A stretch of DNA of 64,000 nucleotides from Methanomassiliicoccales archaeon (GTDB lineage: Archaea; Thermoplasmatota; Thermoplasmata; RBG-16-68-12; SOIM01): positions 67,828 through 131,827 of the forward strand of contig SOIM01000058.1 in NCBI GenBank assembly GCA_004377185.1, written 5' to 3'. The notes below the pieces were generated by a model. That model was not told the DNA's origin and did no database searches. It worked only from the letters and a program-made list of their open reading frames with translations. The position numbers and the translations under genes were made by a program. This document shows positions 4,496 to 57,211 of the stretch, one piece after another; the first letter of the stretch is position 1, and each line of letters starts with the position of its first letter.

Positions 4496-4723
4496 TCAAT
4501 CCTCAGATTTCTTTGGCCTTGTGTAGATGACCTTGATGGTCTCTTCATAACCCGCTATGCACTCGCGACATTCCTCGTCATTCTCTGTGTCAAAGGGTTC
4601 CAGTCGGACCTCAAATCCTAACGATTCGTACATTTCAACGGACTCGCTGAGCCTCGGTTCAGTAGCGGAGAACATTCTGGTCCAACCCTCTTTTTCCAGT
4701 TCTTCCTTCTTTGATTCGCTCAT
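4496..4723 (-). CDS. Small acidic hypothetical protein with a CxxC pair
   Basis: 78-aa ORF, 75 aa from ATG 4723. It lies in the same frame as the 832-aa oxidoreductase upstream, separated only by its TGA stop. It fills the gap before the OYE-like gene. No recognisable family. Confidence 0.4.
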   Translation of the reverse strand: MSESKKEELEKEGWTRMFSATEPRLSESVEMYESLGFEVRLEPFDTENDEECRECIAGYEETIKVIYTRPKKSED

Positions 4724-12497: not shown

Positions 12498-15400
12498 TCA
12501 GCCTTCCACATCTTCCAGCATTTCGGGCCCCTTGGGTTCTTCTTCTGGAGGGGGTGGTGTCTCTTCCTCCGCAGGTGCTTCGGCTGGTTCTTCCGCAGGT
12601 GCTTCGGTTGGTTCTTCCGCAGGTGCTTCGGTTGGTGCCTCTGCCGGTTCTTCCGGCGGTGGCGGGAGTTCCTCTTCGGCAGGGGGTACCTCTGCAACCT
12701 TCGGCTTTCTCCTCAGCATAAGGCCAACCACAGCAACCACCACTACGATGACGATTATCAAGACAAGTAGCCACCAGTATTCCTCCAAGAAGGACGGAGC
12801 AGCTTTCTCTGCTACTGTGATAGTGCCCTGGACCTCGTTCCAATTACCATTCTCATCGCGAGCGGAGATCTTGTAGTCGTAGTCTCCCGCCTCGTCAAAG
12901 GAGAATTCGTACCCGTACACACCTCCACCCAAGTCATCCATAGATCTGTTGGACAGAACGATTAGGGCATCTGAAACCCTGACAATCTCAATACGTACCC
13001 TGTCCACACCGCTCGCATCGTCGACAGTTGCTTCGAATGTGACAGTTTCCCCGGCCTTTGGTTTCTCTGGGTCAACCGTAACATCGATTGTGGGAGGCGT
13101 CAGCTCACGAATATCGAAGCCTCCAGAAGCTGAAGCCCAATTGTCGCTCGTATCGTTCGCCCAGATTACGAAAGTGTACTCTCCTTCGATATCGAAGTCG
13201 ACTTCATAGTAGTATTCGTCGTCGCCAATGTCATACCTCATTGAGTAGTTTCCCACCTCCTCGCCGTCCGGGTCGGTGATGTTAACCCACACTTCGTCGA
13301 CTTGAACATTGTCCTGCACTGTTGCGGAAATCCTTACGTCCTCGCCCGGGGCTTGCGGATCGGGTTCTGCTTTTTGATCCGTTATTGTCGGACTTTGGGT
13401 ATCAGGTGGCGCACGAATTATTAAATCAACACAGGCGGTAAATGATACGTTGTGGTTAGGCACTTCATCCCATCCATGGACGCATACTTGATACGTTCCA
13501 AGCGCCATACCAGAGGTATAGATTGTGACGTTCACGTCCTCAGAAGGTCCGTCGAACGCCCCATCCAACGGGAACATAGGTGTGGTTGTGAGCCAATCTC
13601 TCTCGATGGTGTAGTTCGCTCCAGCGATATTCGACCCTAGTGCCGGATTGTCGTCGATCGTAGCGTTCAGGTAGACTGTTGTACCGGGCCAGACAGTGGC
13701 GGAAATCGGGTCCTCATTCAAAAGAACGCTCAGGACGTATGGAGGTTTATCATCCACGGAAGAGATGTTCAGTATGGCACATGCACCAATCGAATTGTAG
13801 TTCGGGACATCATCCCAACCGTACACGCAAACCTCATAGTCAGCATCCGCCCAACCAGTGGTGTCGATGAAACTTGGGGTAGAGGTCACGTCTTCGGTGA
13901 AGGTATCAAACGCACCATCCGCGGCCTGCAACGGTACACTGGTGAGCCAATCGCCATCTATTGTGTAGTTTGCTCCTTGGATTGCGGTACTTCCTCGACC
14001 TCCAGTGTCGTCCACCGTTGCATTGACAAAAACTGAAGTATCAGGCATAACAGAAACTGTTGGCTGACCATTCAGTGTAACGCCTGCCACGGCAGGGTCG
14101 ATATCATCAAGAACGATTATCTGAACTGCAGGTGCCGAGTCATTATAGTTCATATCTACGTCCCAAGCGTGCACATAGTAATCGAAGACACCAACTGAAG
14201 TAGGCACAAGAATGTTGGCGGTCACATTCTCCGTGGGTTGGTCGAACGACATGTCCACTGGGAACATATCAATCCCTGGCCAAAAATCAACCAGAGGCGT
14301 TGTGTAGTTGGCCCCCCAGACTACTGAAGAACCGGTAGTGGTATCATCTATTGTGGCGTTCAGAGTGGCTGTGGCCGGAAGTGTGGACAGCAAGAAAACT
14401 GCAGACGGTCCACCATCTATCTCGATATTGCTGATTTGTGGTGCCAGATCATCCAGGACAGTGACAGATGTGCATGAACCCGTGGTGTTGTAGTTCGGAA
14501 CTATGTCCTGGCCGTACACACAGTAGATTGTTGTTCCAACTGGAGGTGTGATCACCGCGGTAACATCTTCGGTGGGCGAATCAAACATGCCATCCGCTGG
14601 ATTCATGAGAGTGCTGGTCGCCCAGTCTTGAACACCGATCGTATAGTTCGCACCACCAATGGGCAAGTTGCCCGTTCCGCTATCATCGATTGTCGCGTTC
14701 AAATATATGACTGGAGGAATATTGGAGAGGTCGTAGATTGGATTCATTTGACCATTAATCCTCACATTCAGTACCTGAGGGGCGTTCGTGTCAGGAGCAC
14801 CTTGGCCGGCAGTCAGATTGACCCACACGTAGTCAATCGTATCGAACGGATCCGGGTCCATCAGAGGGTCGACCACGAAATTCGGAGTGCCTATGCCACT
14901 TATAGAAACATTGACAACTGGGTCATAGCCCCAAAGATTGAAGCCCGCGGGCAACAGCCCATTGAGAATGTTCCTCTCCGCATCAGTATCATAGGTCGTA
15001 TTTATCTCAAGTCTGTGCGTGCTGGCAACGGGTATGGTTGTGTTGGAAGTGAAATTCGCTACCATGAGACCCGAAGGAGGATTTGGGGATACGACCGAAC
15101 CCAACAAATCAAAGATGAATGAGTCTGTGCCTGGGACCAGATCATAATGGATTCCATCCACATAGAATTGGTCAATTGTGGTCGAGAAAATCGGGGGCGC
15201 AGCGCCACCAGACATAAAAAGGAAAACATCCAATTCAGTCTGGTTGACAAAGCCGTCCCTGTTCCCGACCACCATGTCTATCATGAACCTCATCGATTGG
15301 TTGTCCACCCCCATTTCAAACCTCGTATCGGAAACAACGTTATCCCAGTCGGTCATCACCAGGGTCGTATTCATTAGGTCAGCAACTGGCAATTCAAGCG

Positions 15401-27561: not shown

Positions 27562-27727
27562 TCCCTCGCCAATGGATGAATATCATTGACCAAGAACGAT
27601 AAATAGTTTGCCAAGAAGCACCTCTTGACCGAAAAACCTCCTAGCCCTTATGGAATTGTCTCGCCTTGAACGCTCTGCAGAATATGAGAGCGGGACAACA
27701 AAAACCCCGTCGTATTGCGTCGATTTT

Positions 27728-27947
27728 TTGGTTATACCTATTGCCAAAGATTCTGTTTCTGACTTCAAATGCTGCTGTTTTTGGTTATACCTATTGCCAA
27801 AGATTCTCTTTCTGACTTCAAATGCTGCTGTTTTTGGTTATACCTATTGCCAAAAACTAAATCGGGGAGAGAGAAAAAATGCATGGATCCAGTACTTACA
27901 CTCACCTCTCCTGTCATCCCTTTTGTTTGGTTATACCTGTAACCAAA
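27728..27947. promoter_or_regulatory. Array of four partially palindromic 20-23-bp boxes (TTGGTTATACCTATTGCCAA x3 at exact 53-bp spacing, plus TTTGGTTATACCTGTAACCAAA) upstream of a small ORF; candidate operator array
   Basis: Boxes at 27728-27747, 27781-27800, 27834-27853 and 27926-27947. The first two intervening 30-bp segments are identical except for one base, i.e. a tandem 53-bp duplication. Box 4 has 8-bp inverted arms TTTGGTTA/TAACCAAA and sits 28 bp before the downstream start codon. Confidence 0.5.
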
Positions 27948-27974
27948 GAATAAGATAGAGGTGGAGGGAAAAAG

Positions 27975-28280
27975 GTGATTGGGAAGGAAACAATGGAGAA
28001 ACTGGGCCTCGAAGAGGCAACGATAGTCTCTTTCGACATTCCCAGCACAGACAAATCCAGGAGAAGCATCATTCAAAGATTCCTCCATGGGCGCAGCGAC
28101 ACAAGGAACCTGAACGGAAAGATGAAGACATACAGATATCCAGGCCTATTGGATGAGGGCGGATTCAGATTGGGGCAATCGGTGTTTCTCCTTCCCCCTG
28201 ATCTTGCATCTAGACTGATCCTGAAACTGAGGGAACTGAAGATAAGCCATCGTTATTGGGATGTGTTGGTCCACGGGTAG
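27975..28280 (+). CDS. Small hypothetical protein with weak Cas2/VapD-like sequence pattern; candidate DNA-binding or nuclease-fold regulator
   Basis: GTG 27975 with GGAGGG SD; 101 aa (95 from ATG 27993). ATIVSFDIPSTDKSRRSIIQRFL ... GFRLGQSVFLLPPDLASRLILKLREL resembles Cas2 beta1-alpha1 and the (G)xRvQxSVFec...L..L segment, with a roughly 20-aa insertion. No other cas genes in the window. Low-confidence recollection-based call. Confidence 0.45.
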   Translation: MIGKETMEKLGLEEATIVSFDIPSTDKSRRSIIQRFLHGRSDTRNLNGKMKTYRYPGLLDEGGFRLGQSVFLLPPDLASRLILKLRELKISHRYWDVLVHG

Positions 28281-28332
28281 TTCCCCGCATTTGGCAGGAA
28301 GAGCTTCGGTCAACACTCAAGCATTCTCAAGG

Positions 28333-55166: not shown

Positions 55167-56387
55167 TTATTGCTCTCTTGGTTCTTCTTCCTCTTTCGAC
55201 TCTTCCTCTGGCAACTCTTCCTCTGGCAACTCTTCCTCTGGCAACTCTTCCTCTGGAAGTCTACCTCTCCCTCGTGCGGCTGCCGCAACAGCTGCGATGA
55301 TGATTACTATTATGATTATGGCAATGATTATCCAGAGCCAGGGGAGCTCTTCGGTCGGTTCTCCGTCAGCAGCAGACACTGTGATCTCATGAGGTGAGGT
55401 TGTGGGATTCGTTGCGGGATGAGTTGCGGTATTAGTACCATCCGTTGCAGAGATGTAGTACTCGACACCATCCGTGGTCACATCATCTGACGGGATGGTT
55501 CTAGTGTAAGTGTCATCTGTTCTGGTCATCGTGACAGCCGTGAAGTCAGCGTCACCTGTCTTTCGGTAGTACAGAGTTGCACTTTCCATGCCCAAACCAT
55601 CGTCTGTGATCGTGGCAGTAATGGTGATTGACTGTTCAGCTGTCGCGGTTGTCACAGCCGTGTGAGTTATCGTTGGAGCATCTGTATCTTCAGAAATCGC
55701 AATCGTGGAGTTAACAGTCCGATTGTCATTGTCGTTTGTATCATTTGCCCAGATAAAGTAAGTTACATCACCAGCAGAAGATTGCGCAGGGATGGTATAG
55801 TTGTAATTGCCTGCGACCAAGACCATCGACTCATTAGCGGTGATGCCGGCCACATCTGTGTAGGTCAAATTCACTTCATTGACTGCTACGTTGTCTGACA
55901 CTTGAGCAGAAATTGTCATTTCTCGACCTACCCAAGCAGCAACTACAGGCGTATGAGTTATCTCAGGAGATTCTGTATCTTCTGAGATTACGATCTCAAA
56001 GTCAATGGTTCTGTTCCAATTGTCGCTTGTATCTGTATCATTTGCCGAAATATTGTAGAAGACACTGCCAGCAGAAGATTGTGCAGGGATTATAAAGCTA
56101 TAGTTGTCGTCCCAGTTAGCCATCGTCACATTGTCCCATGCACCGCTGACTTCTGTGTAGTTCAACCACACTTCATACACGTCATCAACATCCGTCACTT
56201 TGGCAGTAATGTTGATGTCGATACCTACTGTTCCGTCAGTTACTGGGGTATGATCTATCTCGGGACCAAAGGCATCCGCCATCACCGTTGGCATATTCAC
56301 AAGCAAGGCACCAAAGATCATAGCTGTAACAGCAATGATTGATGCCCATCGCACACTATGAGCCGAGAATTGTCGTTTGGCTTTCAT
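55167..56387 (-). CDS. Cell-surface protein with three ~95-aa HTP/ANDT-signature Ig-like repeats, C-terminal TM anchor and (EELPE)n acidic tail
   Basis: Start ATG 56387 (GGAGG SD) giving signal MKAKRQFSAHSVRWASIIAVTAMIFGALLV. Repeats each contain HTPV...NY(N/S)(Y/F)(T/I)IPAQSSAG.V.Y.I.AND(T). Tail WLWIIIAIIIIVIIIAAVAAAARGRGRLPEEELPEEELPEEELPEEE. Confidence 0.75.
   Translation of the reverse strand: MKAKRQFSAHSVRWASIIAVTAMIFGALLVNMPTVMADAFGPEIDHTPVTDGTVGIDINITAKVTDVDDVYEVWLNYTEVSGAWDNVTMANWDDNYSFIIPAQSSAGSVFYNISANDTDTSDNWNRTIDFEIVISEDTESPEITHTPVVAAWVGREMTISAQVSDNVAVNEVNLTYTDVAGITANESMVLVAGNYNYTIPAQSSAGDVTYFIWANDTNDNDNRTVNSTIAISEDTDAPTITHTAVTTATAEQSITITATITDDGLGMESATLYYRKTGDADFTAVTMTRTDDTYTRTIPSDDVTTDGVEYYISATDGTNTATHPATNPTTSPHEITVSAADGEPTEELPWLWIIIAIIIIVIIIAAVAAAARGRGRLPEEELPEEELPEEELPEEESKEEEEPREQ
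55201..55260. repeat. 15-bp tandem coding repeat x4 (actcttcctctggca) encoding the (LPEEE)n tail
   Basis: Four perfect or near-perfect 15-nt units read from the sequence. Confidence 0.8.
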
Positions 56388-56523: not shown

Positions 56524-57045
56524 TCAAAAGTGCCAGGATTTGTTCCACTTATATTCATCCGCTCCTTCGAAAGTCAGTTCGTTCTCGCGTTTGGAAAGGT
56601 TCCTGCAGCTTCTTGGCACGAGCAATCTCTCGCCGTTCAATTCCAGAATTACAAACAAATTATCCCTGACTATTGGCATCATCCGCGTAGATCTCTCAGG
56701 TTCCACAAACACTCTGATGTCCTTGTGGCGGGGGCGGATTGCGATAAGGCCCACTCCTTCCTTCCGAAACCAGTATCTGTTCCGGTAGGCTTGGGAAGCA
56801 TGTCCGAATGGCATTGCCACGAAACAGTAATCCGCACCGAGCTGATACGCCACTGCTTGTCTCAAGGCTTCCCTCCAGTTCCTTATCTTTATCTCCACCG
56901 CCACGACCTCGTCCCCCTTCACCGCGACCAGGTCCACCCATCGGGTAATCATTCTGACCTCTGCGTAGGCCCGGTAGCCATGGCCTCGGAAGAAGGTTTT
57001 CAGACCCGCCTTCAAATCTTCCTCGATGACATTGCAGCTTCCCAT
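56524..57045 (-). CDS. PD-(D/E)xK nuclease-fold protein (Hjc/restriction-endonuclease-like core) with an unknown C-terminal half
   Basis: VDLVAVKGDEVVAVEIKIRNW matches the D...(D/E)xK core preceded by an E-containing helix (EEDLKAGL). 173 aa. Confidence 0.5.
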   Translation of the reverse strand: MGSCNVIEEDLKAGLKTFFRGHGYRAYAEVRMITRWVDLVAVKGDEVVAVEIKIRNWREALRQAVAYQLGADYCFVAMPFGHASQAYRNRYWFRKEGVGLIAIRPRHKDIRVFVEPERSTRMMPIVRDNLFVILELNGERLLVPRSCRNLSKRENELTFEGADEYKWNKSWHF

Positions 57046-57211
57046 CTTCCTTCGACGGGCTACTGGGCTTGTGTAATAAGAACCTCGACGGGAGAGATGG
57101 GTGAATGTATTCCCGATGTCAGCTGCGTTATCGAGTTCGTCTTGAGAATGGCCAGATAGACCAAAAAGACTTAAGTACGCACCATTGACTACCGCTTTAC
57201 AAAGGGGTAAG

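Follow-up and report, generated by a model that had tools for sequence, protein, structure and literature searches.

A palindromic box array at the gene of a small ferredoxin-like protein: a candidate autoregulatory module in a Methanomassiliicoccales archaeon

We found an array of four palindromic boxes directly upstream of a gene for a 101-residue basic protein in a Methanomassiliicoccales archaeon (assembly GCA_004377185.1). The stretch analyzed, referred to as the window, comprises 64,000 nucleotides of contig SOIM01000058.1 (positions 67,828 to 131,827), and we use the term module for the gene together with its boxes. Judging from sequence and structure prediction, this module most likely encodes a DNA-binding regulator that controls its own gene through an operator array and whose unannotated domain is ferredoxin-like and possibly related to Cas2. 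We consider it rather probable that the small protein itself would bind the boxes and control its own synthesis, because the gene-box architecture recurs in 22 further loci, the protein is basic (isoelectric point 9.8; family median 9.7), the boxes are nearly exclusive to the modules, the box variants of paralogs track variable residues of the protein, and the gene is a stand-alone transcription unit. An autoregulatory operator array for a small DNA-binding protein had been among the possibilities named in the initial annotation of this region, and it is favored by the recurring loci, by the box located between a TATA-like element and the start codon, and by the paralog-specific boxes.

Boxes, promoter and locus architecture

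The three distal boxes of the window follow each other at exactly 53 bp, and the last 28 nt ahead of the start codon separate it from the fourth box, which is more symmetric (Table 1). The two inter-box segments are alike except for one base. These features had been described in the initial annotation and were recovered here, with a segment length of 33 nt and 97% identity. The proximal box (TTGGTTATACCTGTAACCAA) agrees with the distal ones (TTGGTTATACCTATTGCCAA) at 17 of 20 positions, and with its flanking T and A runs each palindrome extends to about 24 bp. When the 64 kb were searched with a degenerate box allowing up to 3 mismatches, only these four sites were found, where shuffled sequence would yield 0.01. 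A region of 441 bp is identical across three contigs that were assembled independently (two of them from ENA samples, one from the NCBI genome GCA_030589315.1 of a Thermoplasmata-lineage archaeon), one of which has 3.7x coverage. The array is therefore not an assembly artefact, a possibility that had been raised earlier.

Homologous loci, designated here by L and a number, were taken from GTDB species genomes, JGI metagenomes and exact-product look-ups. Boxes of the pattern T-Y-G-G-N12-C-C-R-A accompany the gene in all 22 further distinct loci that encode a stand-alone homolog, and this association persists to about 34-45% protein identity (L022/L023, L033, L034). Individual arrays hold 1-8 boxes. 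The 73 unique boxes yield the consensus T-T-Y-G-G-Y-T-A-Y-A-S-S-T-A-T-T-R-C-C-R-A-A, with the GG and CC positions invariant in 73/73; box types include TTGGTTATAC in the window and L027 and TCGGTTATGG in L010.

The promoter-proximal box starts 22-71 nt ahead of the matched coding region and in nearly all loci lies between a TATA-like element and the start codon. Most loci have their ATG 13-17 nt past this box, and only 1-2 nt separate box and ATG in the distant homologs L033 and L034. The TATA-like element directly 5' of the box reads TTTATCT in many loci, ATTAATATAT in L033 and, more weakly, CTTTTGT in the window. The distance from TATA to transcription start in archaea is usually about 25 nt, and the proximal box therefore fills the interval between the two, which is where archaeal repressors classically sit when they prevent the polymerase from being recruited. 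The sites thus overlap the core promoter of their own gene, are kept across orthologs and differ between paralogs.

The gap that contains the promoter measures 76-126 bp, and 23 of the 52 other gaps between boxes measure 53-56 bp. Boxes also occur 3' of the stop codon in 9 of 20 tabulated loci, with one to four boxes each. They begin 14-43 nt past the stop in eight of these and 162 nt past it in the ninth (L015), and they precede a convergent gene in L011 and L023 and the next gene on the same strand in L013/L016 and L008. The divergent or downstream neighbor gene may be affected by the outer boxes as well.

The GTG start of the window gene is matched by an ATG at the aligned codon of a paralog, and some gene callers choose the alternative ATG, which yields 95 residues. 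Callers of open reading frames (ORFs) also read through the boxes, as in window positions 27765-28088 on the minus strand and at the N-termini of P0011, P0013 and P0025, where the boxes are translated into peptides such as 'LVIPIAK' (plus strand) and 'FGNRYNQ' (minus strand). These reading frames are spurious extensions or antisense ORFs.

The protein and the reading of its boxes

The literature we searched describes this protein family nowhere, and neither the single protein nor a 52-sequence family profile matched Pfam, NCBIfam or PDB sequences. Its 52 close homologs (51-88% identity) are all hypothetical proteins of Thermoplasmata or Methanomassiliicoccales metagenome-assembled genomes (MAGs). 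An exhaustive profile search retrieved 93 cluster representatives (50% identity clusters) at E up to 1e-3, which belong to Thermoplasmata and other archaea, with several paralogs per Thermoplasmata genome. Most of the 58 representatives examined are stand-alone proteins of 90-120 residues. In 17 of the 58, for example in a Micrarchaeota MAG, the domain is located C-terminally on an MNT-type nucleotidyltransferase of about 200 residues. Such fusions include L025:2680-3270, P0087, P0099 and P0105, and the one in L025 is preceded by a possible HEPN-like ORF without a Pfam hit. No box arrays were found around L025:2680-3270 and other fusions of this type, and viral contigs contained neither relatives of the protein nor boxes.

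The AlphaFold model of the window protein (predicted local distance difference test, pLDDT, 93.5) has a ferredoxin-like fold with an inserted hairpin. Strand 1 (residues 12-20), preceded by just a 7-residue N-terminal helix, is followed by helix 1 (27-38), a beta-hairpin (39-56), two short strands (64-73), helix 2 (75-87) and a last strand (92-100). Foldseek returned nothing at E below 1e-3 from the PDB and from viral structures. An ordinary helix-turn-helix (HTH) regulator is not what the gene encodes: the model is ferredoxin-like without an HTH, and Pfam and NCBIfam have no match.

Several MAGs contain more than one paralog (L004, L009 and L011 in b1.sp2_bin.58; L006 and L008 in RS_17_1; L007 and L014 in RS_5_45), and within one MAG the paralogs have different box variants (L006 vs L008, L007 vs L014, L009 vs L011). 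The boxes of L007, for instance, read TTGGTTATACCTATTGCCAA, and those of L014 TCGGTTATGGCCGTTTCCGA. Variation in the protein is concentrated in residues 24-32, which form the loop between strand 1 and helix 1 and the N-terminus of helix 1 around the invariant R30, in the hairpin tip (45, 49-50) and in the termini (1-13, 91-101); the remainder is highly conserved. The helix-1 variants go along with particular half-sites, namely 'RW' with GGCCAT, 'RRS' with GGTTAT/C and 'GGR.AV' with GGCATC. The simplest account of this pattern would be that each paralog reads its own boxes. Outside the modules, 183 kb contain only four box matches with up to 3 mismatches, one of them just 3 nt past a module limit and none elsewhere in the window, which means that the boxes are almost confined to the modules in the sequence covered. 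Single well-matching boxes are located 0.6-1.4 kb from a module at L018:7723, L019:3433 and L023:1882, near the ends or starts of other genes, and may be additional targets.

The internal symmetry of the boxes helps to distinguish a DNA site from an RNA hairpin. Mirrored non-Watson-Crick pairs in the 73 boxes comprise 78 G-T and 72 A-C pairs, and positions 6/15 form a T-T mismatch in 28 of the 73. An RNA hairpin should favor G-U and avoid U-U, so that these pair counts, together with the location of the proximal box between TATA-like element and start, point to double-stranded DNA sites, presumably for a symmetric (dimeric) reader. The proximal box itself is probably not transcribed. We thus rejected as very unlikely a post-transcriptional autoregulation in which an RRM-, Cas2- or Cas6-like protein binds or cleaves boxes that form RNA hairpins in the untranslated regions 5' and 3' of the gene. 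The ferredoxin-like, RRM-like fold is typical of RNA binders, boxes past the stop codon could lie in the 3' untranslated region, and a C-rich motif resembling an anti-Shine-Dalgarno sequence occurs upstream of the proximal box. However, G-U-compatible pairs are not in excess, T-T mismatches are frequent, the proximal box sits in the promoter or almost touches the ATG (L033, L034), and an Rfam scan of the window gave no match.

In the autoregulation model that we prefer, the basic ferredoxin-like protein, as a probable dimer, would recognize the 20-22 bp palindromic boxes (TTYGG-YTAYA-SS-TATTR-CCRAA) around its own gene. Occupancy of the proximal box would block the recruitment of RNA polymerase and result in negative autoregulation. 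The upstream boxes, mostly at distances of 53-56 bp or about five helical turns, could provide extra sites for cooperative binding or looping and thereby a sharper response. Boxes past the stop codon of other loci may likewise serve as extra sites; their looping to the 5' boxes or a control of the next gene are guesses.

Functionally, the module would most resemble archaeal autoregulators with clustered, phased palindromic sites. Ss-LrpB of Sulfolobus solfataricus, a regulator of the Lrp type, has several semi-palindromic sites clustered upstream of the gene that encodes it, to which its dimers bind cooperatively, with about 100 bp of DNA wrapped and adjacent sites helically aligned, and its autoregulation depends on concentration (PMC2995911). 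The window gene with its 3+1 upstream boxes is similarly arranged, at about five turns instead of the two or three helical turns that separate Lrp-type sites (PMC2995911). The module nevertheless stands outside that family. Ss-LrpB reads DNA through an N-terminal HTH and uses its ferredoxin-like RAM domain for oligomerization only, whereas the window protein lacks the HTH and any Pfam or NCBIfam hit, including RAM (PF01037). Its boxes are 20-22 bp long, follow another pattern and have a longer period of 53-56 bp, and many loci have 3' boxes in addition. The omega protein of pSM19035 and ParR on parC are small ribbon-helix-helix (RHH) plasmid proteins linked to partition genes, which act by cooperative autorepression on iterated sites. 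A small protein, many iterated sites at its own promoter, cooperative binding and autorepression are what we propose here as well; the fold is different, however, and the loci lie on chromosomes in conserved synteny, with no ParA- or ParM-type gene next to them.

Several points weigh against this autoregulation model. The model contains no canonical DNA-binding motif (HTH, RHH or AbrB), and the best structural matches in Foldseek are generic ferredoxin-like, ACT and PII domains, which usually are ligand-binding or oligomerization modules. Common ancestry confounds the co-variation of box and protein, and a single conserved factor of another kind might just as well read the invariant outer TTYGG/CCRAA. 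A weak Cas2-like motif and a near-invariant aspartate may leave some room for a nuclease role. Simple promoter occlusion explains neither the 3' box arrays nor the directional C-rich motif found family-wide upstream of the TATA-like element. Finally, gaps of 46 bp (L032), 64-75 bp (L022/L023) and 76-126 bp also occur, and the spacing is thus not strictly in helical phase.

Some of these points would suit boxes that are operators of another transcription factor encoded elsewhere, with the small protein as the regulated output, for instance a Cas2/VapD-like nuclease or a partner domain. We regard this as unlikely, albeit as the strongest of the alternatives. The fold is of a generic ferredoxin-like, ACT, PII or RAM-like kind, the common outer positions in all paralogs are what a single reader would need, the recurring weak matches are of the Cas2 type only, and the domain is fused to nucleotidyltransferases in distant relatives. 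Moreover, archaea are known to possess stand-alone RAM-domain proteins acting together with Lrp-type regulators (PMC2995911). Against a separate factor, paralogs of the same genome have distinct boxes that track their own variable residues, boxes so nearly confined to the modules would form a peculiar regulon if the factor were independent, and gene and boxes stay associated down to about 34% protein identity.

Table 1. Features of the box-associated gene in the window (coordinates refer to the window; a dot denotes no strand).
Feature	Position	Strand	Remarks
Tandem repeat	27725..27854	.	Tandem Repeats Finder: period 53, 2.5 copies, 98% matches; unit of box plus 33-nt inter-box segment
Distal box 1	27728..27747	+	TTGGTTATACCTATTGCCAA; flanking T and A runs prolong the palindrome
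Distal box 2	27781..27800	+	same sequence as box 1, 53 bp on
Distal box 3	27834..27853	+	same sequence as box 1, 53 bp past box 2
C-rich motif	27889..27911	+	CCAGTACTTACACTCACCTCTCC; directional, upstream of the TATA-like element; conserved family-wide
TATA-like element	27918..27926	+	CCCTTTTGT; weak and T-rich, putative promoter element; abuts the proximal box; aligns with TTTATCT of homologous loci
Promoter-proximal box	27927..27946	+	TTGGTTATACCTGTAACCAA; most symmetric copy, proposed repressor operator between TATA-like element and putative transcription start
Shine-Dalgarno-like GGAGGG	27963..27968	+	6 nt before the GTG; read from the sequence
Gene	27975..28280	+	101-residue basic protein, ferredoxin-like fold plus inserted beta-hairpin, unannotated family; GTG start, alternative start ATG 27993
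3' tail	28281..28322	+	homology to the paralogous module L027 extends through it; delimits the duplicated unit on the right

Resemblance to Cas2 and growth of the arrays

The initial annotation had seen a Cas2-like pattern with an insertion in the protein. Both the pattern and the inserted hairpin are real: the motif hhVSYDI...R..h.R.L.G ... GQSVF lines up with strand 1, helix 1 and strand 2 of Cas2, the fold is of the ferredoxin-like beta-alpha-beta-beta-alpha-beta type, the Asp that ends strand 1 is near-invariant in the family and in a Cas2-like position, and the hairpin inserted after helix 1 comprises about 22 residues. The similarity to Cas2, by contrast, remained below threshold. Cas2-type models are the sole matches other than nucleotidyltransferases that recur across Pfam and PADLOC, with E values of 0.0017 to 0.05 and 12-19 bits throughout, where the Pfam cut-off is about 24. 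The Pfam model CRISPR_Cas2 (PF09827) had no hit to the native window protein at E up to 10 and matched 3 of the 58 family members (best E 0.025; best member 19 bits); PaaX_M (PF20803), the Cas2-like domain of PaaX, matched one of the 58. After deletion of the hairpin in silico, the window protein matched PaaX_M at E 0.012 and Cas2 at E 0.019 (15.6 bits vs a cut-off of 23.8), and P0045 matched Cas2 at E 0.0017; the PADLOC Cas2 models gave E 0.017 and 0.031.

Comparison with authentic Cas2 sequences gave a similar picture. The hhalign probability was 0.5-2%, and hhalign and hmmsearch, with and without the hairpin, produced only sub-threshold N-terminal alignments; the 120 Thermococcales/Methanococcales sequences used were a narrow set (Neff 1.5), and a broader profile might do better. 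Among the Foldseek matches, Cas2 6k2e took rank 10 (E 0.026, TM score 0.41-0.45). Membership in the Cas2 superfamily is thus weakly suggested and should be seen as a lead, not as a result. The same applies to the earlier proposal of a Cas2/VapD-fold gene under repeat control, of which the ferredoxin-like fold with its hairpin was borne out and the Cas2 kinship was not. A type II toxin-antitoxin system of the VapD/Cas2-like kind fits poorly: the monocistronic gene has no adjacent antitoxin and lies between genes of the opposite strand, and other loci have no conserved small neighbor.

Cas2 is a homodimer that works with Cas1 in spacer integration. With Cas2 and PaaX_M the window protein shares its small size, the ferredoxin-like fold and the strand 1-helix 1-strand 2 motif including the Asp, but it differs in its sub-threshold similarity, in the inserted hairpin and in the lack of cas1, a CRISPR array or any other cas gene nearby. 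There is a slim chance that the family is a very divergent, true branch of the Cas2 superfamily that reads short palindromic double-stranded DNA repeats in CRISPR-like geometry (about 22 bp of repeat and about 30 bp in between, multiplied by duplication of such units), as a gene regulator. If so, the half of the CRISPR adaptation machinery that handles repeats would have a free-living relative in this family, which would also be the first sequence-specific DNA-binding transcription factor on a Cas2/ferredoxin-like fold.

How the arrays arise can be read from the segments between the boxes. These are 97% identical in the window, 91% between units 1 and 4 of L005, 79% in L027, also recognizably related in L006 and L032 (73%), and near random in L011 and L016. 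From this graded similarity it follows that arrays grow by tandem duplication of units of box plus segment, after which the segment drifts while the boxes and, loosely, the period are kept. The 53-bp duplication in the window is a young event of such growth. Since segments range from 97% identity to random while GG and CC are invariant and 23 of 52 gaps measure 53-56 bp, selection appears to act on the boxes and their spacing rather than on the intervening sequence.

Growth by duplication and drift is the opposite of CRISPR spacer acquisition. This largely refutes a CRISPR-like array, minimal or decayed, that accompanies a solo Cas2, which had been suggested earlier, and, together with a selfish module that duplicates or moves through a Cas2-like nuclease acting on flanking repeats, we consider it very unlikely. 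The likeness is one of geometry: a partly palindromic 20-24 bp direct repeat occurs in the window as three identical copies plus one variant, at a period of 53 bp, with segments of about 30 bp in between. CRISPR arrays consist of at least three near-identical direct repeats of 23-47 bp at a regular period. Weak Cas2-only matches and the duplication of repeat-plus-segment units during array expansion would fit as well. A further point in its favor is that the whole module of about 650 bp recurs in another context of the same metagenome sample. This second module (L027:3906-4459, on ERZ25073594 NODE_4) is situated on another contig of similar coverage, between radical SAM and UbiD genes; its protein is 88% identical, it has the same boxes except for a diverged first one, and its homology with the window runs from about 27676 to 28322.

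Yet the 'spacers' of these arrays are copies of one another, also in L027, L005, L006 and L032, for which reason we rejected a CRISPR array, where spacers are unique, mutually unrelated and of foreign origin, and the inter-box segment of the window had no exact match in viral contigs. As many as 7 of 20 positions differ between repeats within a single homologous array, a divergence greater than that of CRISPR repeats. The arrays are tiny and anchored to promoters, with one repeat between TATA-like element and start codon. They are also conserved in syntenic orthologs: in L005, L007 and L028 the module is followed by the same tRNA-Arg(TCT) (L005:2116-2190, L007:6424-6498, L028:4481-4555), and this shared synteny marks the modules as stable chromosomal features, to which the L027 duplicate is a recent exception. 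No CRISPR-like array was detected in the window. The reported absence of cas1 and other cas genes was corroborated by the gene-caller Pfam annotation, which contains none in positions 1-38280 and 39577-61322 (about 60 of the 64 kb), and none occur in nine annotated homologous contexts. Besides self-binding, another factor, RNA hairpins and a CRISPR-like or selfish element, we allow a small chance that none of these four readings applies.

Genomic setting and significance

The monocistronic window gene, set in a block of acyl-CoA metabolism genes, is flanked by genes for an FG-GAP repeat protein and a zinc alcohol dehydrogenase, which are both encoded on the opposite strand. Neighbors vary from locus to locus and include FtsZ, arginine decarboxylase with ArgRS, a CCA-adding enzyme, CarA, radical SAM with UbiD, and others. 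In all contexts with clear gene calls the upstream neighbor is divergent (FG-GAP protein, FtsZ, RNase Z-like, radical SAM, arginine decarboxylase, aminotransferase, CCA-adding enzyme, DUF1246/1297 or CarA). The distal boxes lie 98-167 bp from the start of this divergent gene in the eight of nine contexts where this distance was measured; in L023 the box lies inside the listed ORF. In L030 a tRNA-Val (4549-4621) directly follows the module; a tRNA scan of the window found none.

The C-rich motif, gCCAG.ACATTCAC.CACCCCTC, is situated 10-14 nt upstream of the TATA-like element and is better conserved than the boxes. A second occurrence in the window, likewise with a TATA-like element (ACATTCACCCATCTCTCC...TTCTTATTA; 57092-57108, minus strand), has no box. 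It precedes a gene at 56524-57045 (minus strand) for a protein of 173 residues with a weak Hjc/PD-(D/E)xK match (E 0.018). The motif may be the site of an activator or upstream regulator shared by both genes. We rejected a general promoter element, as there are just two occurrences in 64 kb, and also a small minus-strand ORF starting within the motif (MYWLVS... in L006, L009 and L011), where the window has GTG-TAA.

Two other repeats were observed in the window. An in-frame tandem repeat with a 12/24-bp period (12564-12655) lies inside an ORF of 1691 residues, and a repeat with a 15-bp period that encodes EELPE repeats (55186-55268) lies at the C-terminus of a surface-protein-like ORF of 433 residues.

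If the protein binds its boxes, it would represent a new family of archaeal transcription regulators with about 93 clusters at 50% identity, whose DNA-reading module would be a ferredoxin-like domain with an inserted hairpin, neither HTH nor RHH. The natural series of paralogs, in which protein variants can be set against box variants, would then offer a ready-made specificity code and could become a source of orthogonal repressor-operator pairs. The weak but recurrent similarity to Cas2, like the fusions to MNT-type nucleotidyltransferases, also raises the question of where Cas2-like domains originated and which nucleic acid they recognize. Should the boxes not be bound by the protein, the module would still mark a strongly conserved regulatory circuit around an uncharacterized gene.

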